A stretch of 64,000 nucleotides of DNA from Candidatus Magasanikiibacteriota bacterium (GTDB taxonomy: Bacteria; Patescibacteriota; Patescibacteriia; Magasanikbacterales; GWA2-37-8): the NCBI GenBank assembly GCA_943359595.1, contig CALRIA010000001.1, forward strand, positions 11,654-75,653. Direction: 5' to 3'. Shown one piece after another: positions 20,328 through 64,000 of this stretch. Both the position numbers and the translations under genes were made by a program. Numbering within the stretch: the first letter of the stretch is position 1; each line of letters begins with the position of its first letter. The notes under the pieces were generated by a model, which worked only from the letters and a program-made list of their open reading frames with translations, was not told where the DNA came from and searched no databases.

Positions 20328-20331
20328 TTTG

Positions 20332-20394: not shown

Positions 20395-22467
20395 GTGTTT
20401 ATGAAAGAAAAAATTGAACAGCTCATTAAGTGGTTGATTTATGCGGTTTTCTTTGTACCGTTGCTTGTTTTTCCAAGCTCTTATATTTTTCCATTTATTG
20501 TACCAAAGATTATTTTTTTTCGCTCCTTAGTAGAAATAATGACAGTATTGTATGTTTTGTTGTTGATCATTAATTGGCAGCAATATAAACCAAAATTTAA
20601 CTACTTAAACGTTGCAGTGTTTTTATTTTTATTAAGTTTTGCGGTCTCTACGTTTGTTGGTACGGATATATATCATAGTTTCTGGGATAACCATGAACGT
20701 ATGTTAGGGTTGTTTACTTTGTTGCATTACGTTGCTTTTTATTTTATTTGTGCGGGTGTTTTAAGAAATTGGAAAGATTGGAAATGGGCTAGTAGAATAT
20801 TTTTGATAGGTGGTTTTTTTGTAATGTTTATTGCCTGGTTACAAACTCAGATATCTGACCTGCTGTTAAATGGTGGAGCAACGCGTGTGAGTAGTACTTT
20901 AGGAAATCCAATTTACGTTGGTGGTTATGGTTTGTTTTTACTTTTCCTATCTGTGCTATTGTTGAGTTGCGAAAAAAATAATTTTTGGAAATGGTTTTAT
21001 GGGGTAGTTGGTTTTTTTGGTTTCATGGGAATGTTTTGGAGTGGGAATCGCGGTACTATGCTAGGGTTGGTTGCTGGGGTAGCTTTTGCTTTAGTTGCCT
21101 ATATTATAGTATTAAAAAAATATCCTAAAATACGATATGGTTTGTTGACACTAACGATGCTAGGAATATTATCTATTTCTTTGTTATATACTTTTAAACA
21201 TACATCTTTTGTGCAAAATTTACCGGCTATTGGTAGAGCAGTTAACACTTCTTTTGAAGATATAAAAACCAGTCCTAGATGGATTGCTTGGGAAATAGCT
21301 ATAGAAAGCTGGGAAGAAAAGCCAATTTTTGGTTGGGGTCCAAATAATTATTTCTATGCTTTTAATGAACATTACCAATCCAAGTCACTAGATTTTGGGT
21401 ATGGTGAAACCTGGTTTGATAATGCACATAATATTGTATTAAATACTTTGGCAGTACAGGGTGCTTTTGGGTTATTGACTTATTTTAGTGTGTTTATAGT
21501 AGCGCTTGTTGGTTTGGTTATGGCGTATCGCAAAAAATCAATTGATTTTAATTTTATGATAATTGGTGGTGCGTTTGTGGTGGCGCATTTTATTAGTGTT
21601 GTTACTGTGTTTGAAGATCCAACTTCTTATATTTATTTAATGTTTTGGTTAGCGTTAATTAGTGTTTTGTCATTTAATCCAAATGGTGCTTTAGTTGAAC
21701 CTGTTAAAAAAATGGCCTCAACTATTATAAATCAGGATAATAAAATTGGTAATGGTTTAATTATTGGAACTGTAGTGTTTGGTATTTTTGTAGTTTTTAT
21801 TTTTAATATTCAGCCAGCTCGTGCTAACCAAAAAACTTTAGATGCTATACGTACTTTGATGTCTGATCCAGTAATTGGTATGCCTGTGGCAAAAGAGGCT
21901 TTGGAGTTTACATCTCCTCACATAGATGATATTCGCAATGATATTGGTCGTACGGTGTCGCAGTCATTAAATGCTGGGTGGCAGAAGATAGGCAAAGAAA
22001 AATCAAATGAGCTGTTATCGTTAGCTACCGATAATGTAGAAAAAAATTTGATTTTACATCCTTTAGATATTCGCAATCAATTGGCATTAGCTCAGATGTA
22101 TCAGTTGGGGGCGATTATGAACAATAACGCTATGTATGCTATTAAGGCTGAAAGTGTGCTTGAGGATGCTTTAAAAAAATCACCAAAAAGACAGCAGATT
22201 ATTTATAGTTTATCTGGTATAAAACTGCAATTAAACAAATCTGCTGAAGCGATAAAAATGTTGGAAGAGGCCATATCAGACAATCCTAGAATAGGTGAAA
22301 GTTATTGGAGATTGGCCTATGCATATAAGGTAAGTGATCAGGAACAAAAAGCTGTAGAATTAATAAAAATATCTCAAGACAGAGGTGTCAAATTTACTGA
22401 GCAAGAACAAGGAATTATCAGTCAATTTAATTTGGTGGTTAGTACTAGTAGCATAAAAAAGAGGTAA
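20395..22467 (+). CDS. O-antigen ligase-like (Wzy_C/WaaL/PglL-type) polytopic membrane protein with C-terminal TPR repeats
   Basis: 690 aa, ~12 TM. The loop region FFGFMGMFWSGNRGTMLGLVAGVAF resembles the SRG/NRG motif of O-antigen ligases. The C-terminal ~230 aa are TPR-like. Confidence 0.6.
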   Translation: MFMKEKIEQLIKWLIYAVFFVPLLVFPSSYIFPFIVPKIIFFRSLVEIMTVLYVLLLIINWQQYKPKFNYLNVAVFLFLLSFAVSTFVGTDIYHSFWDNHERMLGLFTLLHYVAFYFICAGVLRNWKDWKWASRIFLIGGFFVMFIAWLQTQISDLLLNGGATRVSSTLGNPIYVGGYGLFLLFLSVLLLSCEKNNFWKWFYGVVGFFGFMGMFWSGNRGTMLGLVAGVAFALVAYIIVLKKYPKIRYGLLTLTMLGILSISLLYTFKHTSFVQNLPAIGRAVNTSFEDIKTSPRWIAWEIAIESWEEKPIFGWGPNNYFYAFNEHYQSKSLDFGYGETWFDNAHNIVLNTLAVQGAFGLLTYFSVFIVALVGLVMAYRKKSIDFNFMIIGGAFVVAHFISVVTVFEDPTSYIYLMFWLALISVLSFNPNGALVEPVKKMASTIINQDNKIGNGLIIGTVVFGIFVVFIFNIQPARANQKTLDAIRTLMSDPVIGMPVAKEALEFTSPHIDDIRNDIGRTVSQSLNAGWQKIGKEKSNELLSLATDNVEKNLILHPLDIRNQLALAQMYQLGAIMNNNAMYAIKAESVLEDALKKSPKRQQIIYSLSGIKLQLNKSAEAIKMLEEAISDNPRIGESYWRLAYAYKVSDQEQKAVELIKISQDRGVKFTEQEQGIISQFNLVVSTSSIKKR

Positions 22468-22471
22468 TGAT

Positions 22472-23251
22472 ATGAAATTTAGTGATTTACTTAGATTGCC
22501 AGAAACAAAAACAATATTAAGTTTGAACGACGTGTCAACTACTTTGTTGCATGCAAAGATTATTAAAAATAAAGTATTCCTTAAACGAATATATACAGAT
22601 TTTTATCAATATTTTAATAATCTAGTTTCTAGCAATACAGGGGAAAGATGTTTGGTTGAATTAGGAAGTGGAGGTGGGTTTATTAAAGAAATTATTTCAG
22701 ATGTAATTACCTCTGATATTATTGCTCTGCCCAATATAGATAGACAATTTTCCGCATTAAAAATGCCTTTTGAAAAAAATACGGTTGATGCATTTCTAAT
22801 GATCAATGTGTTGCATCATGTGGATGATTCTATGTCGTTTTTCAAAGAGGTGGATAGATGTCTTAAGATTGGGGGTAAAATAATCATGGTAGAGCCTGCC
22901 AATACTTTGTTTGGACGTTTCATTTATAAAAATTTTCATCACGAATTATTTGATCCTTCTGGTGATTGGGGTTTTGAAAGTGGGGGGCCGCTTTCTTCGG
23001 CAAATGGAGCGATTCCTTGGATAATTTTTTATCGTGATAGACAAAAATTTGAAAAAGAGTTTCCAAATTTAAAAATCAAACAATTAGTTTCTCACACACC
23101 TTTTAGGTATCTAATAAGTGGCGGAATTTCGATGCGGCAACTACTACCATCTTTTATGTATAATTTTGTAAAAATATTTGAAAGCATCTTAACTCCTCTT
23201 AATAATTATTTAGGTATGTTTGTTAGCATTGAAATAGAGAAAGTTGCTTGA
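22472..23251 (+). CDS. Class I SAM-dependent methyltransferase
   Basis: 259 aa. Glycine-rich SAM motif VELGSGGGF, then LKIGGKIIMVEP. Confidence 0.65.
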   Translation: MKFSDLLRLPETKTILSLNDVSTTLLHAKIIKNKVFLKRIYTDFYQYFNNLVSSNTGERCLVELGSGGGFIKEIISDVITSDIIALPNIDRQFSALKMPFEKNTVDAFLMINVLHHVDDSMSFFKEVDRCLKIGGKIIMVEPANTLFGRFIYKNFHHELFDPSGDWGFESGGPLSSANGAIPWIIFYRDRQKFEKEFPNLKIKQLVSHTPFRYLISGGISMRQLLPSFMYNFVKIFESILTPLNNYLGMFVSIEIEKVA

Positions 23252-23300
23252 ATAATTCATTGTATATAGGATTATTTTGGTAAGTTGTAAAATTTTTTTT

Positions 23301-24329
23301 ATGAAAAAAGCATTGATTACAGGTATTACCGGCCAAGATGGCTCATATTTAACAGAGTTTTTAATGGCAAAAGGCTATGAAGTTCATGGTATAATTCGTC
23401 GTTCCAGTAGCTTTAATACCGCTCGATTGGAGCATATTTATAGGGATCCGCATGAAGTTGGTGTACGTTTAAAGATGCATTATGGTGATCTAACAGATGG
23501 TAGTAATTTAGATCGCATTTTAGACAAAGTTCAGCCAAATGAAATTTATAATTTGGGTGCACAAAGCCATGTAAAAGTCAGTTTTGAAATTCCTGAATAT
23601 ACGGCTGATACAGACGGACTTGGTACTTTGCGTTTATTAGATGCAATTCGTGGTACTGGATTAAAAACAAAATTTTATCAAGCTGGTTCATCAGAAATGT
23701 TTGGAAAAGTTCTGGAGACTCCACAAAAAGAAACGACACCGTTTTACCCACGAAGTCCATATGCCTGTGCCAAAGTTTTTGCACACAATATTGCGATAAA
23801 TTATCGCGAGGCTTACAACATGTTTGTATGTAATGGTATTTTATTTAATCATGAATCTTCACGTCGCGGTGGTACATTTGTAACAAAAAAAATCATTGAT
23901 TCTTTTGCTAAAATTAAAACTGGGCAACAAGAAAAATTATATCTCGGCAATCTAGACGCTAGACGTGATTGGGGTTATGCAAAAGATTATGTCGAAGTAA
24001 TGTGGTTAATGCTGCAACAAGAAAAACCAGATGATTTTGTGATTGCCACAGGTGAAACGCATAGTGTGCGTGAATTTGCCGAAGAATCTGCGAATTATTT
24101 TGGTTTTGATCTGATTTGGGAAGGTAGTGGGTTGGAAGAAAAAGGCAAAGATAAAAAAACTGGTAAAATTTTAATTGAGATAGATCGTGAATACTTTCGT
24201 CCAGCAGAGGTGGAATTTTTGCTTGGAGATGCAAGCAAGGCAAAGAAAATCTTGGGATGGAGTCCAAAAGTAAAGTTCCATGAATTGGTCAAAATAATGG
24301 CCGAAGAAGGACTAAATGTTTTTAAATAA
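23301..24329 (+). CDS. gmd: GDP-mannose 4,6-dehydratase
   Basis: [46 protein letters not shown], ...[37 protein letters not shown]. The ORF is open from 23277; ATG 23301 is preferred. Confidence 0.9.
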
Positions 24330-24337
24330 ATGGAATA

Positions 24338-25300
24338 ATGTTTATGATAGCCAAGACAGCTAAAATATTTATCGCTGGACACAAGGGGTTGGTGGGGTCT
24401 GCTTTAGTTCGTTGTTTGCAAAATCAAGGATATAATAATTTGGTTTTACGCACGCACGCAGAATTGGATCTGCTTCATCAATCAGCAGTGTCGAATTTTT
24501 TTACTATAGAAAAACCAGAGTACGTTTTTTTAGCTGCGGCTAAAGTTGGTGGTATTTTGTCTAACAATACTTATCCTGCGGACCATATTTATGAAAATTT
24601 AGAAATTCAAAATAACATTATCCATCAGTCATATAAAAATGGTGTTAAAAAGTTATTATTTTTGGGATCTTCTTGTATTTTTCCGCGCCTTTGCCCACAA
24701 CCTATGAAAGAGGAATATTTATTGACAGGACTATTAGAACCAACTAATGAACCGTATGCATTGGCCAAGATTGCTGGAATAAAAATGTGTCAGAGCTATA
24801 ATCGTCAGTATGGTACAAATTTTATCGCGGCCATGCCTACCAATTTATATGGTCCAAATGATAACTTTGATCTAGATACTTCACACGTTTTCCCAGGGTT
24901 TGTTAGAAAATTTCTTGAAGCCAAAGAACATGAAGATAAACAAATAATCATTTGGGGTACAGGAGTAGCTAGAAGAGAATTTTTGCATGTTGATGATATG
25001 GCAGATGGTTGTTTGTTTTTGATGAATAATTTTGATCCTACGAAAGAGCAGAATGAAAAAGGTGAAATTTTTTTTAATTTAGGTACCGGTAATGATATTA
25101 GTATAAAAGAACTGGCGGAGTTGTTTAAAAAAATCATTGGATATAATGGGGAGATTACTTGGGATAAATCCAAACCAGACGGCATGCCTCAAAAATTACA
25201 GGATATGACAAAAATGCATGCACTTGGTTGGAAACACAAAGTTGATTTAGAAGAGGGAATTAAATTAATGTATGATTGGTTTAAAGATAACCATAAATAA
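24338..25300 (+). CDS. fcl: GDP-L-fucose synthase (GDP-4-keto-6-deoxymannose 3,5-epimerase/4-reductase)
   Basis: IFIAGHKGLVGSALVRCL, YVFLAAAKVGGILSNNTYPADHIYENLEIQNNII and LLFLGSSCIFP are canonical Fcl/WcaG motifs. Confidence 0.9.
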   Translation: MFMIAKTAKIFIAGHKGLVGSALVRCLQNQGYNNLVLRTHAELDLLHQSAVSNFFTIEKPEYVFLAAAKVGGILSNNTYPADHIYENLEIQNNIIHQSYKNGVKKLLFLGSSCIFPRLCPQPMKEEYLLTGLLEPTNEPYALAKIAGIKMCQSYNRQYGTNFIAAMPTNLYGPNDNFDLDTSHVFPGFVRKFLEAKEHEDKQIIIWGTGVARREFLHVDDMADGCLFLMNNFDPTKEQNEKGEIFFNLGTGNDISIKELAELFKKIIGYNGEITWDKSKPDGMPQKLQDMTKMHALGWKHKVDLEEGIKLMYDWFKDNHK

Positions 25301-25309
25301 ATTTATCTT

Positions 25310-26722
25310 ATGAATAAAGAATCAATTACTGAGCATTTCGACCTAACTGCCACTCGAAGAGATGAGTGGAGAAATAAAAATAAATACTATCATCAGGAAA
25401 TAAAATCTTTGTTAAAATTTTTAATTCCAGAAAATTCTAAAGTTTTGGAAATTGGATGTTCTACCGGCGATGTTTTGGCTGAGCTAAAACCTGTTTATGG
25501 CGTTGGTCTTGATATTAGTGCTGAAACCGTTTCTGTTGCCAGAAAAAAGTATCCACATCTAACTTTTTTAGTGGCTGATGCCGAACATTTTGATATGGCT
25601 GAAAAATTTGATTATGTAGTTTTAACTGATGTGGTTGGTTTTTTTAAAGATGTGCAGTCATCATTTGAACAATTACAAAAAGTTAGTCATAGTCGAACAA
25701 AAATAATTATTACTTATTATAATTTTCTTTGGGAACCAGTTATGATGGCGGCGGATAAATTGTCCTTGAAAATGAAAAATCCCGTACAAAATTGGTTGTC
25801 AAAAGAGGATTTGATCAATTTACTTTATTTAACTAAATTTGAAGTAATAAAAAGTGGAGAAAGATTGTTATTCCCAAAGTATTTTCCTCTGCTGTCTTCT
25901 TTTTTAAATCATTTTTTAGCAAAATTACCTTTATTTAGAAAATTATGTGTGGTAAATTTTTTAGTTGCTAGGCCAGTTCCGTTGATGCATCCTCTGCTGG
26001 CTGAACCTTCTGTTACGGTTGTTATACCTGCAAGAAATGAAAAGGGAAATATAGAAGCAGCCGTACAGCGATTGCCAAAATTAGGTTCACATACAGAAAT
26101 TATTTTTGTAGAAGGTCATTCTTCAGATAATACATTTTTAGAAATTGAAAGGGTTAAGAACGCTTATCCATCTTTAGATATTAAATCCATGATTCAAGAT
26201 GGTAAGGGCAAAGGTGATGCTGTCCGCAAAGGATTTGATGCGGCCACTGGCGATATTTTAATGATTTTAGATGCTGATCTGACAGTTAAACCGGAAGAAT
26301 TGCCAAAATTTTATAAAGCGATCACTTCTGGAGCTGGAGAATTCATAAATGGATCTAGATTAGTATATCAATTGGAAGATCAATCAATGCGCTTGTTGAA
26401 TATTTTTGGCAATAAATTTTTTAGTATAATGTTTAGCTGGCTTTTAGATCAGAGATTAAAGGATACTCTTTGTGGTACTAAAGTTATTTGGAAAGACGAT
26501 TATCAAAAAGTAAAAATTGGTAGGTCTTTTTTTGGTGATTTTGATCCTTTTGGTGATTATGATTTATTATTTGGGGCTTCGAAATTAAATTTAAAGATCA
26601 TTGATTTGCCAATTCGCTATCAAGCAAGAACATATGGCACCACCAATATTTCACGTTTTAGTCATGGTTGGTTGTTACTTAAAATGTGTTTTTTTGCCAT
26701 GAAAAAGATTAAATTTATTTAA
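25310..26722 (+). CDS. Fusion protein: N-terminal class I SAM methyltransferase + C-terminal GT2 (DPM1/polyprenyl-phosphate glycosyltransferase-like)
   Basis: 470 aa. N-terminal VLEIGCSTGDVLAEL...VGLDIS. C-terminal VTVVIPARNEKGNIEAAVQRL...ILMILDADLT (GT2 DxD region). Confidence 0.7.
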   Translation: MNKESITEHFDLTATRRDEWRNKNKYYHQEIKSLLKFLIPENSKVLEIGCSTGDVLAELKPVYGVGLDISAETVSVARKKYPHLTFLVADAEHFDMAEKFDYVVLTDVVGFFKDVQSSFEQLQKVSHSRTKIIITYYNFLWEPVMMAADKLSLKMKNPVQNWLSKEDLINLLYLTKFEVIKSGERLLFPKYFPLLSSFLNHFLAKLPLFRKLCVVNFLVARPVPLMHPLLAEPSVTVVIPARNEKGNIEAAVQRLPKLGSHTEIIFVEGHSSDNTFLEIERVKNAYPSLDIKSMIQDGKGKGDAVRKGFDAATGDILMILDADLTVKPEELPKFYKAITSGAGEFINGSRLVYQLEDQSMRLLNIFGNKFFSIMFSWLLDQRLKDTLCGTKVIWKDDYQKVKIGRSFFGDFDPFGDYDLLFGASKLNLKIIDLPIRYQARTYGTTNISRFSHGWLLLKMCFFAMKKIKFI

Positions 26723-26740
26723 TTTCTTTATTATAATTTT

Positions 26741-27706
26741 ATGAAAACTGCTCTAGTTTGTGGTGCCGGTGGATTTATTGGTAGCCACTTGGTAAAAAAA
26801 TTAAAAGGAGAAGGTTTTTGGGTTAGAGGAGTTGATTTAAAATTGCCGGAATATAGTGTGACTGTGGCTGATGAATTTGTTGTTGGTGATCTAAGAGATC
26901 AACTTTTTTGTCAAAAAATGTTAGATAGATCTTTTGATGAAGTCTATCAACTGGCAGCAGATATGGGTGGAGCTGGTTATATTTTTACAGGTAATCATGA
27001 TGCAGATGTGATGCATAATTCAGCGACCATAAATCTGAATATGGCATATTATAGTCAGAAAGTTGGTGTAAAAAAGATTTTTTATTCTTCTTCGGCTTGT
27101 ATTTATCCAGCTTATAATCAATTGGATCCAGATAATCCAAAATGTTCAGAGGATTCTGCTTATCCAGCTGAACCAGACAGTGAATACGGCTGGGAAAAAT
27201 TATTCAGTGAACGATTGTATTTGTCCTTTTATCGTAATTACAATCTAAATGTTCGCATCGCACGATTTCATAATATTTTTGGACCAGAAGGAACGTGGCA
27301 AGGTGGTAAAGAGAAGGCACCAGCGGCTATTTGTCGTAAAATCGCTGAAACTCCAGATGGGGGAGAAATTGAAGTGTGGGGAGATGGAAAACAGACCCGT
27401 TCTTTTCTATTTATAGACGAGTGTTTAGAAGGAGTAAGGCGATTGATGGATTCTGATTTTATCGGTCCAGTTAATGTTGGTTCGGAAGAAATGGTTTCAA
27501 TAAACCAACTAGCTGAAATGGTTATGAATATTGCTGGGAAAAAATTGTCGATTAAGCATGTAGAAGGTCCAAATGGTGTAAGGGGAAGAAATTCAGACAA
27601 CCATCTTATTGCCAAAAAATTGGGTTGGCAGCCAACTAGACCGCTAAGAATCGGTTTGGAGTTAATGTATAAGTGGATATTAGAGCAAGTTAGTGATAAA
27701 AAATAG
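26741..27706 (+). CDS. GDP-mannose 3,5-epimerase (GME-like SDR)
   Basis: 321 aa. LAADMGGAGYIF, FYSSSACIYPAY, RFHNIFGPEGTWQGGKEKAPAAICRK, WGDGKQTRSFLFIDECLEGV and EGPNGVRGRNSDN match plant/bacterial GME almost motif-for-motif. Confidence 0.8.
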   Translation: MKTALVCGAGGFIGSHLVKKLKGEGFWVRGVDLKLPEYSVTVADEFVVGDLRDQLFCQKMLDRSFDEVYQLAADMGGAGYIFTGNHDADVMHNSATINLNMAYYSQKVGVKKIFYSSSACIYPAYNQLDPDNPKCSEDSAYPAEPDSEYGWEKLFSERLYLSFYRNYNLNVRIARFHNIFGPEGTWQGGKEKAPAAICRKIAETPDGGEIEVWGDGKQTRSFLFIDECLEGVRRLMDSDFIGPVNVGSEEMVSINQLAEMVMNIAGKKLSIKHVEGPNGVRGRNSDNHLIAKKLGWQPTRPLRIGLELMYKWILEQVSDKK

Positions 27707-27724
27707 ATTTTAAATAATTATTTT

Positions 27725-27764
27725 TTGACACCTGTTGACACCTAATGATACTTGATGATATACT
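27725..27764 (+). promoter_or_regulatory. Promoter region with tandem direct repeats (2x TTGACACC, 2x ATGATACT-like)
   Basis: ttgacacc-tg-ttgacacc-ta-atgatact-tg-atgatatact. The second TTGACA, an 18-nt spacer and TATACT form a sigma-70-like promoter. This is the only sizeable intergenic gap inside the supercluster. Confidence 0.45.
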
Positions 27765-27790
27765 ATCTACATAATAGTTATTATTGTAAT

Positions 27791-28036
27791 ATGCTTGAGA
27801 TAAACCCAAACGAAGTTTATACACCAGTTGAAACTGAAAAATTATTAAAAATAAGCAAGAGCACAGTAAAACGCCTAATCAAGACGGGGTTGTTAAAGGC
27901 AAATAAAATTGGGAAACAATATCGCATTATGGGGCACAGTTTGCTTAAGATGCTTTCAGAAGATTTAGATAAAAGTGCAACCGATGTCTACCAAAAGATT
28001 AAGATAGATGCTATTCAAAAAACAAAGAATTGGTAA
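27791..28036 (+). CDS. Small HTH DNA-binding protein (excisionase-family HTH_17)
   Basis: LLKISKSTVKRLIKTGLLKANKIGKQYRI is a classic excisionase/MerR-type HTH. The ORF is open from 27752; ATG 27791 is preferred (81 aa). Confidence 0.6.
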   Translation: MLEINPNEVYTPVETEKLLKISKSTVKRLIKTGLLKANKIGKQYRIMGHSLLKMLSEDLDKSATDVYQKIKIDAIQKTKNW

Positions 28037-28040
28037 ATTT

Positions 28041-29576: not shown

Positions 29577-29577
29577 T

Positions 29578-30892: not shown

Positions 30893-30899
30893 ATATTTT

Positions 30900-31841: not shown

Positions 31842-31869
31842 ATATCTAATAATTTCTAAAAATATATTT

Positions 31870-33641: not shown

Positions 33642-33645
33642 TAAT

Positions 33646-37268: not shown

Positions 37269-37272
37269 TATT

Positions 37273-39054: not shown

Positions 39055-39067
39055 TACTTTTATAGTT

Positions 39068-39970: not shown

Positions 39971-39999
39971 GGTATTAATTTTTTAGCTGTGTAGTATAT

Positions 40000-42777: not shown

Positions 42778-42795
42778 TTCATTAATTAAATCTAT

Positions 42796-44106: not shown

Positions 44107-44116
44107 TTATTATATT

Positions 44117-45055: not shown

Positions 45056-45077
45056 TTTCCAGTTTGATTAGATAAAT

Positions 45078-46025: not shown

Positions 46026-46030
46026 AAAGT

Positions 46031-46870: not shown

Positions 46871-46876
46871 GACATT

Positions 46877-47599: not shown

Positions 47600-47600
47600 T

Positions 47601-49237: not shown

Positions 49238-49260
49238 TTTATAATTTTAATATTTATTAT

Positions 49261-51794: not shown

Positions 51795-51887
51795 ACACAA
51801 TATTATCTTGACAAACGATACCGCTTTAGATACCATATCATGGTTATACACTCTTACATAATTTGTAATTAAAATTATAAAATAATT

Positions 51888-54452: not shown

Positions 54453-54479
54453 TAATTAATAAGGATAAAAATTTATTTT

Positions 54480-54929: not shown

Positions 54930-54931
54930 TT

Positions 54932-55615: not shown

Positions 55616-55698
55616 AATTGGTTTATCTTTTAGTGATAGTTTTGAAAAAATAATAAAAATATACTTTAACCCGATTTATAACGAATATTAGTAGTTAT

Positions 55699-56592: not shown

Positions 56593-56593
56593 T

Positions 56594-57613
56594 ATGAAAT
56601 ATCTGATAACTGGAGGGTGTGGTTTCTTGGGTTCCAACTTGGCTTGTGAAATAATTAAAGCCGGTGATGATTTGGTAATTTTTGATGATCTTTCTCGTCT
56701 TGGTTCGAAAGAAAATTTATTATGGTTAGAAAGTTTAGGAACATTTACGTTTGTTAAAGCTGATATAAGAAATTACAATGATGTGGAAAAGATGATAATT
56801 TCAGTAAAACCAGATACAATTTTTCATTTGGCTGGCCAGGTAGCAATGACAACATCATTACAAAATCCGAAATTAGATTTTGAAATAAATGCTTTAGGGA
56901 CTTTTAATTTACTGGACGCTGTTAGAAAATATTCTCCAGATTCGACTATTATTTATTCTTCAACCAATAAAGTCTACGGTGATTTAGAATGGTTAGGTTA
57001 TGAAGAAAAAGAAAAAAGATACGAAATTAAAGATTTTCCGGTTGGTTTGCCTGAATCAATTCCGCTTAATTTTACTTCTCCTTATGGATGTTCTAAAGGA
57101 GCGGCTGATCAATATGTATTAGATTTTTCACGTGTTTTTGGTTTAAAAACTATCGTATTTAGACATTCTTCAATGTATGGCGGAAGACAATTTTCAACTG
57201 CTGATCAAGGTTGGATAGGTTGGTTTTGTGAGCAGGCTTTAAATACTCTGAAAAACAAACAATTACCACTTTTTACAATCTCAGGTAATGGTAAACAAGT
57301 CAGAGATGTTCTCTATGCTGATGATATGGTGAATTTATATCTGTCTGCTGCAAAAAAGGCGGATGCTTTAAAAGGAGAAGTTTTTAATATTGGCGGAGGA
57401 GTAGCCAATAGCCTTTCTTTATTAGAATTGTTTGATATCTTAGAAAGTGAATTAAGTGTAAAATTAAAATTTATTAATTTACCACCCAGATTCAGTGACC
57501 AAAAAGTTTTCATTGCAGATATTAGAAAAGCGAAAAAACTAATTGGCTGGAGTCCTAAAATTGATGCACATGCTGGCATAAAAAAAATGATAGAATGGAT
57601 TACTAAAAAATAG
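56594..57613 (+). CDS. CDP-paratose 2-epimerase-like (tyvelose epimerase family, RfbE-like)
   Basis: [72 protein letters not shown] and [12 protein letters not shown] match RfbE motif-for-motif; 339 aa. Confidence 0.8.
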
Positions 57614-58317
57614 TGTATATGAAAAATAAAGAATTGAGCATAATAATCCCAGCTTATTTGGAAGAAGAAAACTTAAAAATTATTCTACCACGTCTTAAAG
57701 ACGTGTTAAAAACAATAAGTGATAATTGTGAAATTTTAGTTGTTGATACTATTGAACCTAAGGATAATACAAAGAAAGTATGTAACGATAACGAAGCAAT
57801 TTATGTTAATAGAACTGGAGGTAATGATTATGGAGATGCGATCAGAACTGGGATTAAAAGTGTTAATGGTGAGTATACTATTTTTATGGATGCGGATGGT
57901 TCACATGATCCCGAATTTGTTAAAGTTTTATATGATAATAAAGAAAACCAAGATGTTGTCGTTGCTTCAAGATATATAAAAGGTGGTAATACAGAAAATA
58001 GTAAAATCTTGATTTTTATGAGTTTGATAGTTAATGTTATATATTCTTTAGTGTTGGGGATTAAATGTAATGATATTTCCAATAGTTTCAAATTATATAA
58101 AACAGCAGACTTAAAAGATTTGAAGTTAAATTGCAATAATTTTGATGTGGTTGAAGAAATAATATTTAAATTAAAAAAGAAAAAAAAGATTTTAAAAATA
58201 AAGGAAATTCCTTTTCTTTTTAAAAAAAGGATGTTTGGTAATACAAAAAGGAATTTATTTTTATTTATGTTGTCGTATATTGTTACTATTATTAAATTGC
58301 GATTTATCAAAGAATGA
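57613..58317 (+). CDS. GT2 glycosyltransferase (DPM1/polyprenyl-phosphate type)
   Basis: LSIIIPAYLEEENL...ILVVDT...FMDADGSHDP (DxD). Confidence 0.75.
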   Translation: MYMKNKELSIIIPAYLEEENLKIILPRLKDVLKTISDNCEILVVDTIEPKDNTKKVCNDNEAIYVNRTGGNDYGDAIRTGIKSVNGEYTIFMDADGSHDPEFVKVLYDNKENQDVVVASRYIKGGNTENSKILIFMSLIVNVIYSLVLGIKCNDISNSFKLYKTADLKDLKLNCNNFDVVEEIIFKLKKKKKILKIKEIPFLFKKRMFGNTKRNLFLFMLSYIVTIIKLRFIKE

Positions 58318-58341
58318 TAAATATTTATTAATATTATTTTT

Positions 58342-59610
58342 ATGAAAATATTGCTGAATAATAAAATTATTGAAAATTTTAAAAAATTGATTAAGCCGGT
58401 TTGTTTATTTTATGCCGTTGTTGCTTCTTTTCTAGTAGCGAATTTTCCAACAGTAAAATTCGCTTATGCTTTAAATATTAGCAGGGACAATGCTGTGTTA
58501 ATGCGCGGATTTATCTTTTTTATCGCTATAATTATTTTATTTTATTTTACTTTCAAAAATTTTTATAAATTAAAAGAATATTTGCTATGGGATGTATTTT
58601 TTCGTTCTGTAGCCGTCTTTTTATTTTTAGCAATCCTAGTTTCTACCCTGCGAGCTACTTATATGGGAGAAGTGTATGCAAACATTTCTTTATCACCTTT
58701 TGACCAAGATGTTGGTTTTTTTTATAGAAGAATATTGGAACCGGCAGTAGCATTTTTTTTACAATTAAAAGGTCAATTTTTGTATAGTTGCTTGCATTTT
58801 TTGATTACTTTTTCATCTATTTACATGATTATTTTGTGGTTAGAGAAAAAAGTATTGGTAAATTTTAAAATTTGGCAGTTGGTGAGTATAATGACGGCTG
58901 GAATGATAATACATCAATTTGAGGCGCCTGGTTATCCGGATCAGATAATTTTATTGCTAGCTTTATTGTCGTTCTTTGTTCCACTTAATAAATATGGAAG
59001 AATTAGTCTGTTGGCATTAATGTTTTTATCTCATGAGTCTGCAGCATTATTTCTTGGTTTTATTTTTAGCTGGTTTTATTTTCCTAAGGAAGAACGTTGG
59101 TATTACTTTTTATTACCGGTTAGCTATTATTTTTTATGGTTAGTCAATTATGATTTTAATTTTACCAATTTATTTTTGGGTCACTTATCATTAACTAATG
59201 AAAATGCTATAACTTTATTTTTTAAAAATATTAATTTAGCAGTACTGTCGGTATTTTTTGCCTATAAATTTTTGTGGATTTTGGTATTTATTGGTTGTTA
59301 TTTTTATTTTAAAGAAAAAAATTATAAACTCTTTTATCAAATCATTGTGATGGTTTTTGCTCCATTGGCACTTGTTATAGTTCCAGACACTTCTCGCGTT
59401 GTGGCTTGGGGTAATATTGGTGTTTTTTTAGCAATCGCTTGTTCTTCCAAACATTTAAGCGCTAGGGCATTTAATTTAATTTTAGTGTTAAATCTATTGT
59501 TACCTAGTGTTGCTGTTGGCACAGCTAGTGGTGGAGCTGTTTCTTATGCTGGTTTGTATGGTTTTGTAATTTATTTGTTTAAGTTATTGGTCAAGAATTA
59601 TTTAATGTAG
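58342..59610 (+). CDS. Polytopic membrane protein (422 aa), unknown function
   Basis: ~12 TM helices, aromatic-rich, no soluble domain. Confidence 0.6.
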   Translation: MKILLNNKIIENFKKLIKPVCLFYAVVASFLVANFPTVKFAYALNISRDNAVLMRGFIFFIAIIILFYFTFKNFYKLKEYLLWDVFFRSVAVFLFLAILVSTLRATYMGEVYANISLSPFDQDVGFFYRRILEPAVAFFLQLKGQFLYSCLHFLITFSSIYMIILWLEKKVLVNFKIWQLVSIMTAGMIIHQFEAPGYPDQIILLLALLSFFVPLNKYGRISLLALMFLSHESAALFLGFIFSWFYFPKEERWYYFLLPVSYYFLWLVNYDFNFTNLFLGHLSLTNENAITLFFKNINLAVLSVFFAYKFLWILVFIGCYFYFKEKNYKLFYQIIVMVFAPLALVIVPDTSRVVAWGNIGVFLAIACSSKHLSARAFNLILVLNLLLPSVAVGTASGGAVSYAGLYGFVIYLFKLLVKNYLM

Positions 59611-59624
59611 GTATAATTAATTTT

Positions 59625-60476
59625 ATGATAATAACAAAAATAAAATGCGGACTAGGGAATCAAATGTTTCAATATGCACTTGGCAAACGCTTGTCTTTGG
59701 ATTGGCACGATGAATTAAAGGTTGATCTAGCTTGGTTTAAAAATATTAAAGCTGGTGACATACCAAGAGATCTAGAAATTAATAGTTTTAACGTTGTTTT
59801 AAACGAAGCCAGTGAAACGGAGATTTATCGTTCAACGCCGTCCATTTTTTTTAGGGCGGTTGATAGAATTCTTGGACGTTTAAACAGAAATCATTTTTAT
59901 CGCTTTTACCCACAATTGTTAAGAAAGAAAAAAAATGTATATTTAGACGGGTATTATCAGAATTATAGATATTTTGAATCAATTAGAAATGTGTTATTAT
60001 CTGAATTTATATTAAAATTTGGATATAATCAAATAGTTGATGAAATAAAATCAAAAATTGAAATGGCTGGTGAATCGGTGGCTATTCATATTCGTCGCGG
60101 CGATTTTGCTACCACACGCAAAGGATATAACGGTCTTTGCGATTTGGCTTATTATCAAAAAGCACTGGATGTAATAAATAATAAATATTCAGAAGTTAAG
60201 TTGTTCGTTTTTTCTGATGATATTGAATGGGCTAAATTAAATTTAAAATTTTCTAGTCCGATGGTGTTTGTTTCTCGGCCTATTTTGAAACCAGCCGAAG
60301 AGTTATTTTTAATGAGTTTGTGTAAGCATCAAATTATTGCCAATAGTACGTTTAGCTGGTGGGCGGCGTGGCTAAATAAAAATTCTCAAAAAATTATTGT
60401 GTCTCCTAGCGTTTGGTTGGTGGCTCAAGATATTAACATTGATTATTTGTTGCCACCAGATTGGGTAAGATTGTAA
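59625..60476 (+). CDS. Alpha-1,2-fucosyltransferase (GT11)
   Basis: N-terminal IKCGLGNQMFQYALGKRLS is the GT11 hallmark. Later HIRRGDF and a C-terminal SxFSWW-type motif (STFSWWAAWL). Confidence 0.85.
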   Translation: MIITKIKCGLGNQMFQYALGKRLSLDWHDELKVDLAWFKNIKAGDIPRDLEINSFNVVLNEASETEIYRSTPSIFFRAVDRILGRLNRNHFYRFYPQLLRKKKNVYLDGYYQNYRYFESIRNVLLSEFILKFGYNQIVDEIKSKIEMAGESVAIHIRRGDFATTRKGYNGLCDLAYYQKALDVINNKYSEVKLFVFSDDIEWAKLNLKFSSPMVFVSRPILKPAEELFLMSLCKHQIIANSTFSWWAAWLNKNSQKIIVSPSVWLVAQDINIDYLLPPDWVRL

Positions 60477-60508
60477 ATTGAATATAATTTATTGGTTAAT
60501 AAAAAATT

Positions 60509-61285
60509 ATGCCAAAAATTAGTGTTGTAATCATAACTTATAATCGAGCTCCATATATTTGTGCTGCAATTGATAGTGTTGTTTGCCAAACTAATTCAGA
60601 TTGGGAGTTGTTAATTATTGATGATGCTTCAACCGATAATACAAAGTTGTTGATTGATAGTTATATTAATCGTGATTCTAGAATTAAATATATTAAAAAT
60701 CTTAATAATATTGGAATTAGTGCGTCACGTAATAAAGCTCTGCACGCAACTAGTGGAAAGTATGTGGCTATTCTGGACAGTGATGATATTTGGGCGGATG
60801 AAGAAAAACTACAAAAACAATGTAACTTTCTTGAAAATAATGTGGAATATGTAGTAGTTGGCGGGGCTGTGATAGTCTTAAATGAAAGAGGGGCTGTGAT
60901 ATTTCATTATAAAAATCCAATCACTGATATGGCAATCAGAAAAATAATATTATTACGGAATCCTTTTATAAATTCATCGGTCATGTTTGTTAGAGAAGTG
61001 GCTATAAAATGTGGTGGGTATGAAGATTATGTGGTAGGTGAAGATTATGATTTATTTTTAAAAATGGGACAACTTGGTAAAATGTACAATTTAAACGATT
61101 TTCTGGTTAGATATAGAAAGCATGATGCAGGAATTACCTGGTCTAAACGGGTTCGGGCGGCGCAAGATCATTTGGACATAATTAATAAATTTAAACAGGC
61201 ATATCCCAATTATTTTTTTGCTTTGATTAAAGGGTATGTGAGATTATTTTTGGCTAAATTTTTGTTTTGTAGTGATCATTGTTAA
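60509..61285 (+). CDS. Glycosyltransferase family 2
   Basis: ISVVIITYNRAPYI...LLIIDDASTDNT...ILDSDDIW. Confidence 0.8.
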   Translation: MPKISVVIITYNRAPYICAAIDSVVCQTNSDWELLIIDDASTDNTKLLIDSYINRDSRIKYIKNLNNIGISASRNKALHATSGKYVAILDSDDIWADEEKLQKQCNFLENNVEYVVVGGAVIVLNERGAVIFHYKNPITDMAIRKIILLRNPFINSSVMFVREVAIKCGGYEDYVVGEDYDLFLKMGQLGKMYNLNDFLVRYRKHDAGITWSKRVRAAQDHLDIINKFKQAYPNYFFALIKGYVRLFLAKFLFCSDHC

Positions 61286-61286
61286 T

Positions 61287-62390
61287 ATGAAAATATTATA
61301 TTTAATAACTAAATCAGAGATTGGTGGCGCCCAAACGCATGTAGGGCAGTTGGTTAAATTTTTTGTTCAAAATAACCACGAAGTCGTCGTGATGAGTCTG
61401 CCGGGTGGTTGGCTAGAAAATGAGGTAAAAAATATAGGGGCAAAGTTTGTTCCTAATATTTATTTTTCTAATAATTTAAATCCTGTTCGTTTTTTTTATG
61501 CAATTAGAATTATCAAAGAATTGGTCGAGGAGTTTAAGCCTGATTTAGTGGCTTGCCACAGCACTGCCGCAGGTTTTATTGGAAGAATCACAATTAGAAA
61601 TAGCGTGCCGACAATTTATACTGCTCACGGTTGGTCCTTTGAACCAGGTACACCTTTTTGGCGAAGGTTTCCGGGGATTTTGGCAGAAAAGTATGCCGCT
61701 AATTTTTGTAAAAAAATTATTTGTGTTTCAAAGAACACTCGTCGTATTGGCATAAAATTTAGAATTGCCAACCAAGATAAAATGGTGGTAATTTATAATG
61801 GTATTGAAAAATCAGATCTACAGAAGAATGTTGAAAACAGTAAACTTAAAATAATTTTTGTAGGAAGATTTTCAAAGCAAAAAAATCCAGAATTATTAAT
61901 AAGGGCGGCATCACGCTTACCAAATAATTTATTAAAACAAATTGAAATATTATTAATTGGTAATGGTCAAAAGACATATTTGATTAATAATTTAATCAAA
62001 CTAAATAAAAATTTATTTGTTAAAATTTTCCCAAGCGTTAACCGTGATGGTATAATTCAATTGTTACAAGATTCAGACATATTTGTACTTTCTACCAATT
62101 GGGAGGGGCTTCCTTATTCAATCTTGGAGGCCATGAGCGTTGGTTTGCCGGTGATAGCTACGGACGTTGGTGGAATAAATGAATTAGTAGACAGTAGTTG
62201 TGGTTTTTTGATAGAACGTGGTGATGTGGAGGGGCTGCAAAAGGCATTAGTCAATCTAATTTTAGATAAGGAGTTGAGGAAAAAAATGGGTGAAAATGCA
62301 AAAAAAATTATTGAAGATAAATTTTCTATGGATAAAATGCTGTTAGAAACAGAAAAAGTTTATAATGCAGTAATGAAAAATAAAATATGA
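61287..62390 (+). CDS. Glycosyltransferase family 4
   Basis: KILYLITKSEIGGAQTHV at the N-terminus. C-terminal STNWEGLPYSILEAMSVGLPVIATDVGG (E-x7-E). The ORF is open from 61272. Confidence 0.8.
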   Translation: MKILYLITKSEIGGAQTHVGQLVKFFVQNNHEVVVMSLPGGWLENEVKNIGAKFVPNIYFSNNLNPVRFFYAIRIIKELVEEFKPDLVACHSTAAGFIGRITIRNSVPTIYTAHGWSFEPGTPFWRRFPGILAEKYAANFCKKIICVSKNTRRIGIKFRIANQDKMVVIYNGIEKSDLQKNVENSKLKIIFVGRFSKQKNPELLIRAASRLPNNLLKQIEILLIGNGQKTYLINNLIKLNKNLFVKIFPSVNRDGIIQLLQDSDIFVLSTNWEGLPYSILEAMSVGLPVIATDVGGINELVDSSCGFLIERGDVEGLQKALVNLILDKELRKKMGENAKKIIEDKFSMDKMLLETEKVYNAVMKNKI

Positions 62391-63790
62391 AATTACTTTA
62401 CCTGGGTGCCGGTTTTGTCGGAACATGTTCTGCAGCAGTAATGGCTGATAGTGGTCATGATATTTTGATTTATGATATTGATCAAATAAAAATTAAAATG
62501 CTTGGCTCTGGCGATCGTGATTTGATCCAGAATTGTCTGTTTGAAGATGGGTTAGGTGATCTGTTGGTTCAAAATAAAGATCAAATAAAATTTTCTTCTG
62601 ATTATAATGACGTAGTAAAAAATCTGGATACATTAGATGCCGTCTTTATGTGTCTACCAACTCCAGAAAAGAAAGGTTCAAAAGGAGAATCTGACTTGTC
62701 TTATTATTATTTGGCCGCCGAAGAATTAGCTAAAAATTTAGCCAAAAGAAATGGTGAGGCACAAAATAAATATATAGTGATAATTAATAAAAGTACCGTG
62801 CCGATTGAAATGATTGATGAGACGGAAAAAATAATGAAAAAACATGGCGTCAAAAATTTTGGTTTAGCTTCTAACCCAGAATTTTTGGTAGAAGGCAAGG
62901 CAATTTATGGTTCTTTGAAACCAGATCGCATTGTTATTGGGGCTTGGACTGAGGAAGATTTTAAAATTATTCGTAATATCTACCAGAGATTTTATTCTTC
63001 ACCAACAGTAAAATATATTGAAGTCAATCCTAAAGAAGCGGCCGCTGGAAAACTATTGGCTAATTATTATTTATTTAGTAAGTTAGCGATTTGTTACGAT
63101 GTGATTGGCCGCACTTGTGAGACGTTTGATAATTTGCAATTTGAAAATTTAAGAAAAATTATTAGTACTGATCCTCGTCTAGGTAGTTGGGGGTTATTTG
63201 ATAGTTTTTTTGCTGGCGGTAGTTGCTTTATTAAAGATACTGCTTCGTTGGCCTATCAATTGGAGGAAAAGGGTGTGGACGTATCCTATATTAAGGAAAG
63301 TTTGCGTATAAATAATTTCCAATGTGATAATTTCTATAATCGCGCTGGTAGCGAAGCCCAATTTAGTTTTAAAAATAAAGCAGTAGCGATTTTGGGCGTG
63401 GCTTTTAAAAGAGATACTAATGATGTGCGTAATTCTGGAGCGATAGAAATAGTTAATAAGTTGTTAGATGATCAAGTAAAAGAAATAAAAATTTATGATC
63501 CAGCTGCTATGTGGATGTTTAAAAAAGTTTTTGATGTCGAGAAAGATTCGCGATACAAGGTCATTAATTATTATAATTCTGAAAAAGATTCTTTGTCTGG
63601 AACAAGTGCTTGTATGATTTTAACTGATTGGCCAAAATTTAGAGAAATTGGCAGCGTTATTAAACAAAAATGCCCCGCTCCATATTTAATTATGGATGGT
63701 CGTCGAATGCTGTCGGCTCAATTTGATGAATTACAGAATTTAGGTTATGATATCATCGCAGTCGGTAGTCCATTTTTAAAAGGAAAATAA
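62387..63790 (+). CDS. Nucleotide-sugar 6-dehydrogenase (UDP-glucose/GDP-mannose dehydrogenase family)
   Basis: [21 protein letters not shown]-terminal NAD motif. Catalytic-Cys region GGSCFIKDT. 467 aa. Confidence 0.85.
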
Positions 63791-63795
63791 AATAT

Positions 63796-64000
63796 ATGTC
63801 AAAATTAGTAGTTACTGGCGGAGCCGGATTTATCGGCTCACATTTAGTAGATAGATTAATCGAACTTGGTCATCAGGTTGTGGTGATTGATAATTTATTG
63901 CTAGGTAAAAAAAGTTTTGTAAATAAAAAAGCAAAATTTATTAAGGCAGATATTAGAGATTTTAATAAAATTAAAAAATGTTTTTCTGGTGCTGAAGCAA
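63796..64000 (+). CDS. NAD-dependent nucleotide-sugar epimerase/dehydratase (GalE-like), 3' truncated by the window edge
   Basis: [35 protein letters not shown]. Confidence 0.7.

Follow-up and report, generated by a model that had tools for sequence, protein, structure and literature searches.

Does a long, unbroken run of sugar-handling genes on one strand build one surface glycan, or does it merely hold several glycan pathways that happen to lie side by side? The run in question is found in a 64,000-nucleotide stretch (hereafter the window) of contig CALRIA010000001.1, from a Candidatus Magasanikiibacteriota bacterium, where it extends from position 20395 to the window edge. A sequence-only reading of the window had described it as a supercluster of about 40 genes devoted to a single complex surface glycan. 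We consider it probable that the array is one integrated, lineage-conserved surface-glycan assembly locus, made up of a backbone and of exchangeable nucleotide-sugar cassettes, among which is a predicted cassette for an erwiniose-type branched sugar.

According to a map of the open reading frames (ORFs), only plus-strand genes are present from 20395 to the window edge, namely 42 complete genes and one that is cut by the edge. Start codons were refined from gene calls on near-identical public contigs, which placed the gene with a helix-turn-helix (HTH) domain at 27791, wzx at 28041, rfbG at 32679, the 645-aa membrane protein at 49857 (listed as 49842) and the protein listed at 47517 probably at about 47601. 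On this basis, the junctions comprise 12 overlaps, 26 gaps of 0-30 nt, one of 32 nt and three of more than 40 nt (27707-27790, 51795-51887 and 55616-55698), and the non-coding total is 615 out of 43,606 nt, making the array 98.6% coding. The dense single-strand run noted earlier is thereby borne out. Four long gaps had been reported with it, three of which stand; the 62-bp gaps said to lie beside the HTH gene measure 84 nt before and 4 nt after it. As the genes in the first 20 kb of the window are on mixed strands, the run is far beyond chance (by our own arithmetic p < 1e-5 for 43 same-strand genes in a row, even with 75% plus-strand genes). GC skew is positive over the whole window, and the strand bias is thus partly due to the leading strand. 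The cut gene encodes a 301-aa GalE-like short-chain dehydrogenase/reductase (SDR) ending at about 64701, as read from a public contig (L081; L numbers denote public loci throughout) that is 99.97% identical to 50509-64000, and the full array therefore spans about 44.3 kb and 43 genes. Downstream on L081 follow a hairpin with T9, a 169-aa gene, the gene of a 1196-aa secreted protein and, on the opposite strand, rpmA. A terminator-like hairpin with a 12-bp stem (20298-20325) and a promoter-like site (20332-20360) lie 5' of the array, which is thus bordered by terminator-like hairpins on both sides. Judged from typical genome sizes of the group, about 44 kb corresponds to roughly 4-7% of the genome.

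By comparison with Pfam, NCBIfam and PDB, a domain or family was assigned to 39 of the 43 genes. The firm content consists of 23 nucleotide-sugar enzymes in at least six routes, one Wzx, one protein combining Wzy_C and tetratricopeptide repeat (TPR) domains, five methyltransferase domains and one HTH_17 protein, while the proteins at 40000, 47517, 49857 (listed as 49842) and 58342 received no family assignment at the usual thresholds. The array is composed of the following features, where GT stands for glycosyltransferase, TM for transmembrane segments and ThDP for thiamine diphosphate.

20395-22467, plus strand: membrane protein of the Wzy_C (O-antigen ligase/O-oligosaccharyltransferase) family with a C-terminal TPR (Pfam).
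22472-27706, plus strand: GDP-sugar block, with a methyltransferase (22472), Gmd (23277), Fcl (24338), a methyltransferase-GT2 fusion (25310) and a GDP-mannose 3,5-epimerase homologue (26741).
27791-31841, plus strand: regulator and flippase block, with HTH_17 (27791), Wzx (28041), an RmlC-like cupin (29578), an RmlD-like reductase (30020) and a GT2 (30900).
31870-33641, plus strand: glucose-1-phosphate cytidylyltransferase (rfbF/ddhA-like) and CDP-glucose 4,6-dehydratase (rfbG/ddhB-like) (NCBIfam).
33610-35369, plus strand: split transketolase, N- and C-terminal subunits (Pfam Transketolase_N; Transket_pyr and Transketolase_C).
35360-39970, plus strand: ErwJ-like acetaldehyde dehydrogenase, ErwI-like aldolase, ErwE/YerE-like ThDP carboligase (37273) and ErwF-like SDR (NCBIfam, Pfam, PDB).
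40000-42777, plus strand: 925-aa membrane protein with about 15 TM, a predicted GT-C fold (GtrC-like) and an N-terminal beta-rich extension (AlphaFold2, Foldseek).
42796-44106, plus strand: RfbH/DdhC (E1) CDP-6-deoxy-4-hexulose 3-dehydrase (NF011936, 698.5 bits against a cut-off of 423).
44117-45055, plus strand: GtrB/ArnC/PgfS-type polyprenyl-phosphate glycosyltransferase, a GT2 with two C-terminal TM (NCBIfam).
45078-49854, plus strand: three GT2 (45078, 46031, 46877), a possible GT-B-like protein (about 47601-48566), an FkbM methyltransferase (48539) and a methyltransferase (49261) (Pfam).
49857-51794, plus strand: 645-aa membrane protein with a predicted GT-C fold and an invariant DD motif (AlphaFold2, Foldseek).
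51888-55615, plus strand: C-methyl block, with a second Gmd, a WbuC-like cupin, an NDP-hexose 3-C-methyltransferase, a cupin and a short SDR.
55699-59610, plus strand: two SDR sugar enzymes, a DPM1/AglJ/ArnC-like synthase (57613) and an orphan 422-aa protein with 11 TM (58342) (family and TM annotation).
59625-64000, plus strand: GT11 (59625), GT2 (60509), GT4 (61272), an NDP-sugar (UDP-glucose-type) dehydrogenase (62387) and the start of the GalE-like SDR (Pfam).

Much of this agrees with what had been recognized earlier, i.e. a dense co-directional glycan locus in a low-GC genome with at least four nucleotide-sugar pathways, five methyltransferases and transferases of the GT2, GT4 and GT11 types (the last by Pfam). 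The GDP-L-fucose route is encoded together with an enzyme of the fucosyltransferase family, since Gmd (TIGR01472, 572.6 bits against a cut-off of 415), Fcl and the GT11 enzyme (Glyco_transf_11, 118 bits) all occur in the array. For the proposed GDP-L-galactose or gulose route there is the epimerase homologue at 26741 (PDB 2c59, E = 2.6e-100), for the UDP/GDP-sugar dehydrogenase a TIGR03026 match of 261 bits (cut-off 190) and for the flippase Wzx matches to Polysacc_synt_3 (63.9 bits) and Polysacc_synt (47.3 bits). The suspected C-methyl sugar also finds its enzymes: the score of the second Gmd (415 bits) coincides with the cut-off, and the 3-C-methyltransferase resembles TylC3 (PDB 4rv9, E = 1.3e-72). 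Following the pathway logic of PMC3539893, this block is predicted to be a route to a GDP-6-deoxy-3-C-methyl-hexose of the virenose or evalose type; the TylC3/virenose-type route is complete, with 4,6-dehydratase and C-methyltransferase and with two cupins and an SDR adjacent.

A further module had been read as one for a CDP-dideoxyhexose. This holds insofar as rfbF, rfbG and RfbH are present, so that the DdhA, DdhB and DdhC set for CDP-4-keto-3,6-dideoxy-D-glucose is encoded in the array, but the module is really larger, and by its predicted product 31870-44106 is an erwiniose-type cassette for a 4-C-acyl-branched sugar, with homologues of ErwJ, ErwI and ErwE, an ErwF-like SDR and a split transketolase. 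The order is rfbF, rfbG, split transketolase, ErwJ, ErwI, ErwE and ErwF, with RfbH further downstream. Both the ErwJ-like acylating acetaldehyde dehydrogenase (TIGR03215, 365.1 bits, cut-off 282) and the ErwI-like 4-hydroxy-2-oxovalerate aldolase (TIGR03217, 383.6 bits, cut-off 286) exceed their thresholds. The enzyme at 37273 has all three TPP_enzyme domains and a GDG...NN ThDP motif from residue 449, and its best PDB match is the YerE-like JanthE (8rph, E = 9e-125), as compared to 1e-74 for acetolactate synthases. Directly 3' of it is an SDR of the epimerase family, a position that is kept in relatives at 43-71% identity. In Pectobacterium atrosepticum, the YerE homologue ErwE is encoded beside the BphI-type ErwI, the BphJ-type ErwJ and the reductase ErwF (Steitz et al. 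2022, PMC9306805). According to the same work, ErwE refuses pyruvate and instead uses 4-hydroxy-2-oxovalerate, branching CDP-4-keto-3,6-dideoxyglucose at C4 to give erwiniose.

A scan of one genome per species returned 480 stretches related to the ErwE region, of which the best 80 were analyzed. Among loci with an ErwE homologue of at least 50% identity and enough flanking sequence, 59 out of 60 had ErwJ and ErwI directly upstream, whereas six homologues at 48% identity or less, which are YerE-like, had neither. The cassette occurs under more than 25 taxonomic labels, and Patescibacteria appear in at least seven places of an unbootstrapped neighbor-joining tree of ErwE, which indicates that the cassette was moved by old cross-phylum transfer. 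More than 200 YerE-like clusters were covered by an in-silico survey mentioned in the review PMC12247030, and the wide spread of such clusters is therefore not new. Three paralogous YerE/ErwE-like ThDP enzymes (67%, 41% and 41% identical to the 37273 enzyme) are situated within 12 kb in one related locus (L011, 10001-13540 and 20046-21761), which suggests several branched sugars in a single Patescibacteria genome. Seven loci come from metagenome-assembled genomes labeled as uncultured Gammaproteobacteria (L001, L007, L029, L047, L050, L052 and L053), while their ErwE homologues cluster with those of Patescibacteria. Five of them (L001, L047, L050, L052 and L053) also carry neighbors known from the array, i.e. 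the 925-aa GT-C protein, the GtrB-like GT2, RfbH or the Wzy_C+TPR gene. These labels may be wrong, or else transfer may have been recent.

The split transketolase is found in the same position in L002 and in a relative on a JGI contig, and less similar copies lie close to a small number of further YerE/ErwE homologues. In miharamycin and amipurimycin biosynthesis, keto sugars are proposed to receive a hydroxyacetyl branch from split-gene transketolases (PMC12247030), for which reason it is a reasonable idea that the pair in the window is a candidate second ThDP-dependent sugar-branching enzyme.

An ErwE tree that is incongruent with taxonomy, with Patescibacteria in at least seven positions, could also speak for a chimeric assembly or for foreign islands that the array took up recently, and the sequence-only reading had itself raised both a chimeric contig and sub-clusters of differing phylogenetic affinity as what would undo it. 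No sign of a chimera was found where independent assemblies could be compared: the independent Logan assembly L086 matches 16762-33251 at 100% identity, L081 and L082 are 99.94-99.97% identical and colinear over 50509-64000, and one colinear 217-kb contig holds both the 22472 gene and the 60509 gene. GC content at third codon positions (GC3) is likewise uniform, at 0.20-0.30 in the cluster except for the 246-nt HTH gene (0.35) and the 149-aa cupin at 54480 (0.33), which matches the range of the flanking housekeeping genes (0.23-0.34). Cluster genes thereby differ from a true foreign islet elsewhere in the window, with its GC3 of 0.47 and 0.66. Such an origin for the array appears highly improbable, and for recent events it is effectively refuted. 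Differing affinities among the sub-clusters do exist, although only as old, compositionally ameliorated cassette exchange.

The islet (6880-8863) lies by tRNA-Val (6695-6769) and consists of two genes.

6880-7683, plus strand: PNP_UDP_1 nucleoside phosphorylase, GC-rich islet.
7958-8863, minus strand: 2OG-Fe(II) oxygenase, GC-rich islet.

Their GC contents are 0.51 and 0.55 and their GC3 values 0.47 and 0.66, as against about 0.33 (GC) and 0.25 (GC3) elsewhere. The islet has the look of foreign DNA that was inserted recently next to the tRNA gene. A structured RNA in this GC-rich piece was also considered and rejected, as Rfam returned no match and two ordinary protein genes are located there.

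Three giant membrane proteins had been singled out earlier, and for two of them (40000 and 49857) a more precise role can be suggested, as predicted GT-C-fold glycosyltransferases. The AlphaFold2 model of the 40000 protein, built with 25 homologues, has a predicted local distance difference test score (pLDDT) of 81 and a predicted template modeling score (pTM) of 0.83, and its top 18 Foldseek matches in PDB are all GT-C enzymes (PglB, STT3, DPY19, ArnT, AftA) at a probability of 1.00, followed by a sharp drop in score. E299 is invariant in this family, and two homologues are fused to a GtrA domain. The model of the 49857 protein (pLDDT 86.8, pTM 0.90) gave a similar picture, with GT-C enzymes (STT3, AftA, AglB, PglB, ALG3) as all of the top 20 matches at a probability of 0.94-1.0 and then a sharp drop; D134 and D135 are invariant in 34 sequences of the family, and a PDB search with its sequence gave no match. 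Both calls are made at fold level only, because the TM-scores of the two models are modest (0.3-0.5). The 58342 protein (422 aa, 11 TM) has no family assignment and only 13 homologues, all in Magasanikbacteria-like genomes. As a profile comparison of the 40000 family with the 49857 and 58342 proteins found no relationship, the three represent separate membrane-protein families. A word-indexed search had made the 40000 family seem ultra-rare (30 members), an idea that was dropped when a full HMMER scan gave 2952 representatives. The core domain is widespread and unannotated, and what is uncommon is only the version of about 900 aa that has the N-terminal extension.

The predicted GT-C enzymes are accompanied by two putative polyprenyl-phosphate sugar synthases. 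For 44117, the best NCBIfam matches are PgfS (187 bits) and ArnC (127 bits), and a homologue of at least 45% identity is found near the ErwE homologue in 28 out of 74 loci. The best family matches of 57613 are AglJ, ArnC and DPM-like proteins. In a Magasanikbacteria contig, a GT2 (60% identical to 44117) is followed by GtrA and then by a 40000 homologue (49%). This suggests that the GT-C enzymes are partnered with polyprenyl-phosphate sugar synthases, whose products would serve as their donors. Altogether, Pfam identifies ten Leloir transferases: the GT2 enzymes at 25310, 30900, 44117, 45078, 46031, 46877, 57613 and 60509, the GT4 at 61272 and the GT11 at 59625. Together with the two GT-C proteins (40000, 49857) and the Wzy_C ligase-like protein this makes 13, and the earlier count of at least 14 is passed only when two further candidates (47601-48566 and 58342-59610) are added, which brings the tally to 15.

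Relatives show how the array is composed. Two loci of Patescibacteria H51-bin093_1 (L002 and L003) are colinear with 31870-48566 at 60-86% identity. The JGI contig (about 62% identity) has the same gene set on one strand with permuted blocks, in the order transketolase, Erw genes and GT-C; the block from four GT2 enzymes to a 643-aa protein; methyltransferase-GT2, HTH, Wzx, RmlC/RmlD-like, GT2, rfbF and rfbG; and finally RfbH. The order HTH, Wzx, RmlC-like, RmlD-like and GT2 is kept there at about 62% identity, and the block 45078-49854 is syntenic in L003, L083, L085 and the JGI relative. A Magasanikbacteria genome, CG10, keeps what may be called the backbone at 43-78% identity (RfbH, 55699-58342, 44117, 40000, 45078-49854, 49857, 60509 and 61272), including the four-gene block 55699-59610 at 65-78% identity in L084, and lacks ErwJ and ErwI, with a ThDP enzyme that is only 38% identical. 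In L050, L051 and L058, the Wzy_C+TPR gene (43-54% identity) is followed directly by the Erw cassette, and homologues at 54% identity head the loci L051 and L058. Within L051, the C-methyl block is 84-87% identical and ErwE only 60%. Because relatives permute blocks and CG10 keeps the backbone without the Erw cassette, the locus is best described, as far as such comparisons go, as a backbone conserved in the lineage, to which are added exchangeable sugar cassettes that evolve independently. The notion of one glycan is thereby supported in that relatives co-inherit most genes, and qualified in that blocks are permuted, sugar cassettes swapped and the Erw cassette has its own cross-phylum phylogeny.

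In place of the Erw cassette, CG10 (L084, 1361-5526 and 11277-13232) has a NeuB-cupin fusion, a HAD hydrolase, a shorter ThDP enzyme and a B12-binding radical SAM protein, a set that suggests another unusual sugar on the shared backbone. In the window and one relative, the small HTH_17 gene (27791-28036) is always directly 5' of wzx and after the methyltransferase-GT2 fusion, even with the blocks permuted. A second HTH_17 protein is encoded on the minus strand at 13799-14203.

Such modularity could also arise if two or more independent glycoconjugate pathways lay side by side, e.g. a Wzx-dependent heteroglycan and separate GtrB/GT-C systems, each separately expressed. The permuted blocks are in line with this, and so are the occurrence of 55699-59610 and the backbone without the erwiniose cassette in CG10, the disparity in L051 between the C-methyl block and ErwE, and the presence of two polyprenyl-phosphate synthases with two or three GT-C candidates. 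Promoter-like sites in internal gaps, at 27735 and 51808, add to it. The former (27735-27764) reads TTGACA-18-TATACT, with 11 out of 12 matches and a TG, and the latter (51808-51836) TTGACA-17-TACCAT, whereas the gap 55616-55698, also thought earlier to carry a promoter, has a -10-like TATACT without a properly spaced -35. Since the total count of promoter-like sites is not above that of shuffled controls, the promoter evidence is weak. We regard separate pathways as rather unlikely. Only one flippase and one ligase-like gene are present, the array is nearly all coding with no strand switch, and in all close relatives examined the blocks are inherited together. Moreover, supply genes and their matching transferases are in different blocks. 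That the GDP-fucose genes (23-25 kb) are far from the GT11 enzyme (59.6 kb) and rfbF/rfbG (32 kb) far from RfbH (42.8 kb) argues, like the single Wzx and the single Wzy_C gene, for an array that works as a unit, and relatives at about 62% and 45-78% identity co-inherit the gene set although their blocks are permuted. Three of the array's few intergenic gaps share the -10-like hexamer TATACT (20332-20360, 27735-27764 and 55616-55698).

Several observations nevertheless weigh against a single integrated locus with the sugar routes given above. The internal promoter-like sites allow for separate expression of sub-blocks. Neither a priming phosphoglycosyl transferase (Bac_transf or WecA/Glycos_transf_4 type) nor Wzz nor a recognizable Wzy polymerase was found in the window or in 7 kb beyond, and GtrA is absent from the cluster and the window. 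The E3 reductase (DdhD/AscD), the usual partner of RfbH, is missing as well, in that no flavodoxin-reductase or 2Fe-2S protein occurs among the cluster genes or in 7 kb beyond and L051 has no E3-sized ORF between the GT2 and the second Gmd; this reductase could be encoded elsewhere in the genome. Three enzymes score below their cut-offs: rfbF (best NCBIfam TIGR02623, 261 bits, equivalog cut-off 300), rfbG (best NCBIfam TIGR02622, 202 bits, equivalog cut-off 278) and Fcl (NF047922, 468 bits over the full length, just below 500). If the array is nonetheless one integrated locus, the priming transferase, Wzz, polymerase, E3 and GtrA must be encoded elsewhere or be dispensable.

What the glycan is attached to depends on the Wzy_C+TPR protein, which had been called a ligase or PglL-like protein with TPR. 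Both domains are confirmed, with Wzy_C at 69 bits (Pfam cut-off 31.7) and an additional match to TPR_19; a PDB search with the sequence matched the TPR part only. The protein has about 12 TM, and hydropathy parity suggests that the TPR is outside the cell. The Wzy_C family includes the O-oligosaccharyltransferases PglL, PilO and WsaB. Patescibacteria are generally reported to lack lipopolysaccharide (LPS), which makes a lipid A-core acceptor unlikely. One candidate for the acceptor, proposed also by the sequence-only reading, is encoded just upstream.

16465-20250, plus strand: 1261-aa secreted S-layer-like protein, candidate acceptor, outside the operon (signal-like N-terminus).

In this protein T, A, S and G make up 45% of the residues, and it belongs to no Pfam family. 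Directly 5' of its gene are an ECF-type sigma factor (14283-14939) and an anti-sigma-like DUF5667 membrane protein (14944-16251), separated from it by a 213-nt leader with GC-rich hairpins. This pair may constitute a dedicated regulation of the surface protein. The 1196-aa secreted protein just past the cluster (L081, 14897-18487, i.e. approximately 65.4-69.0 kb in the window's numbering) is a candidate second glycoprotein, with a linker of about 130 aa consisting mostly of Thr, Ser, Ile and Val, a weak LTD domain and a beta-helix-like C-terminus. The two proteins are not homologous.

The locus could thus be a general protein O-glycosylation (S-layer glycan) system, in which the Wzy_C+TPR protein would act as an O-oligosaccharyltransferase on the 1261-aa and perhaps the 1196-aa protein. 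The presence of a domain shared with O-oligosaccharyltransferases is consistent with this, as is a TPR that is probably extracytoplasmic. So too are the Ser/Thr-rich composition and secretion of both flanking giants, with the Thr/Ser/Ile/Val linker in one of them, the improbability of a lipid A-core acceptor, and PgfS, from the surface-protein glycosylation machinery of Streptococcus mutans, as best family match of 44117. We see it as a possible reading that we would adopt only tentatively. The link of the cluster to the 1261-aa protein is weak, because the strong hairpin at 20298-20325 and the promoter-like sequence at 20332-20360 cut its gene off as a separate transcription unit, and because in L050, L051 and L058 the ligase-like gene comes directly after an amino-acid permease gene, with no S-layer-like protein between. 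The two giants are mutually unrelated, and a Wzy_C domain cannot tell WaaL ligase, O-oligosaccharyltransferase and Wzy polymerase apart.

This last property leads to yet another explanation, namely that the product is a wall-linked or capsular polysaccharide and the Wzy_C+TPR protein its polymerase (Wzy) and not a ligase. Wzy polymerases also carry Wzy_C-like domains, and no other polymerase candidate has a family assignment. That the TPR suggests recognition of a macromolecular partner counts against it, together with the fact that neither a Wzz/PCP chain-length regulator nor a gene for export or attachment (LCP) was found in the window; we judge this explanation unlikely. Still more doubtful is a specific combination, in which general O-glycosylation would use a 4-C-acyl-branched, possibly doubly branched, erwiniose-like sugar that is delivered by polyprenyl phosphate and unannotated GT-C enzymes and attached by the TPR-Wzy_C protein to the S-layer-like giants. 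Were it true, the candidate phyla radiation would have its first defined glycosylation machinery, and acyl-branched sugars would be installed by a new route.

Returning to the integrated locus that we favor, its operation can be pictured as follows. Cytoplasmic enzymes would supply at least six activated sugars, with structures predicted from the gene content: GDP-L-fucose; a sugar of the GDP-L-galactose or L-gulose type; a 6-deoxy-L-hexose via the RmlC/RmlD-like enzymes; a GDP-6-deoxy-3-C-methyl-hexose; a UDP-uronic acid; and a CDP-3,6-dideoxy-4-C-acyl-branched sugar of the erwiniose type. For the last, and modeled on P. atrosepticum, ErwJ would provide acetaldehyde, which ErwI would join with pyruvate to 4-hydroxy-2-oxovalerate. 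The ErwE-like enzyme would then decarboxylate this compound and add the remainder at C4 of CDP-4-keto-3,6-dideoxyglucose, supplied by rfbF, rfbG and RfbH, and the ErwF-like SDR would reduce the branch, while the split transketolase may add a second branch of the hydroxyacetyl type. The ten Leloir transferases and the methyltransferases would build and decorate an oligosaccharide on a polyprenyl carrier at the cytoplasmic face, to be flipped across the membrane by Wzx. On the outer face, single sugars from the synthases 44117 and 57613 may be used for decoration by the GT-C proteins 40000, 49857 and perhaps 58342. Lastly, the Wzy_C+TPR protein would transfer the product to its final acceptor, a protein or a wall polymer, and not lipid A-core if the group lacks LPS.

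Other genes connected to glycans are found outside the array, within 1440-6633. These are a GT4 on the minus strand (1440-2600), a DUF4015 glycoside-hydrolase-like protein (2663-3886), an EamA transporter and a GH5/10/42-like protein (5623-6633).

The nearest homologues of the cluster-specific membrane proteins carry the names Patescibacteria group or Candidatus Magasanikbacteria. The surface is central to the biology of Patescibacteria, given their tiny genomes and their attachment to other cells, and its chemistry is almost uncharted. The locus predicts that fucose, a 3-C-methyl-6-deoxyhexose and an erwiniose-type C-branched sugar occur on such a surface. In addition, two GT-C families without Pfam models gain a predicted role and partners, one of them with about 3000 cluster representatives in public data, and the split transketolase by the ErwE-type enzyme is a candidate for a new sugar-branching activity of interest to biocatalysis.

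A search of the literature for glycan or S-layer glycosylation loci of Patescibacteria found nothing specific. The closest known systems come from other bacteria. The erwiniose cluster of P. atrosepticum SCRI1043, as described in PMC9306805, offers a gene-for-gene match, with YerE-like carboligase, BphI/DmpG aldolase, BphJ/DmpF dehydrogenase, SDR reductase, cytidylyltransferase, CDP-glucose 4,6-dehydratase and RfbH. It differs in that the window has a split transketolase between rfbG and ErwJ and no E3 (DdhD), and in that the host belongs to Patescibacteria, without an LPS context. In the window, a GT-C enzyme and a GtrB-like GT2 also come after the cassette, an arrangement that suggests polyprenyl-phosphate delivery instead of a Leloir transfer. 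In miharamycin and amipurimycin biosynthesis (PMC12247030), N- and C-terminal transketolase genes are similarly separate and placed inside a deoxy-sugar set. The pair in the window, whose activity is predicted, stands beside a YerE/ErwE-type enzyme in a surface-glycan locus and not in an antibiotic cluster.

The pairing of a GT2 synthase (44117 or 57613) with a large GT-C protein recalls the Gtr, Arn and Pgf systems (GtrA/B/C; ArnC/ArnT; PgfS/PgfM1/PgfM2 of S. mutans), all the more so as GtrA is fused or adjacent in relatives of the locus. Unlike in those systems, the GT-C families of the window lack a Pfam model and a GtrA, the donor is probably a CDP-derived branched sugar, and the 925-aa protein has an extra N-terminal TM and a beta-rich domain. 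O-antigen and capsule loci share the arrangement of a conserved backbone and sugar cassettes that differ, are permuted and have their own phylogeny, whereas the array is without conserved flanking anchor genes, Wzz and export genes and belongs to an organism that is no LPS diderm. The slg clusters of Geobacillus and Paenibacillus and the O-glycosylation locus of Tannerella forsythia (PMC2943079, PMC6120980) are alike in combining co-directional sugar genes, GTs, methyltransferases, a flippase and Wzy_C near the gene of a surface-layer-like protein, in a cell without classical LPS. They differ from the window in that its cluster has no priming transferase and the adjacency to the surface protein is not conserved. 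With about 44 kb and 43 genes, the window locus is roughly twice the size of those clusters. Seen next to all of these, it is an unusually large example of the known polyprenol-based surface-glycan systems and not a new kind, with an assembly logic that is unchanged.

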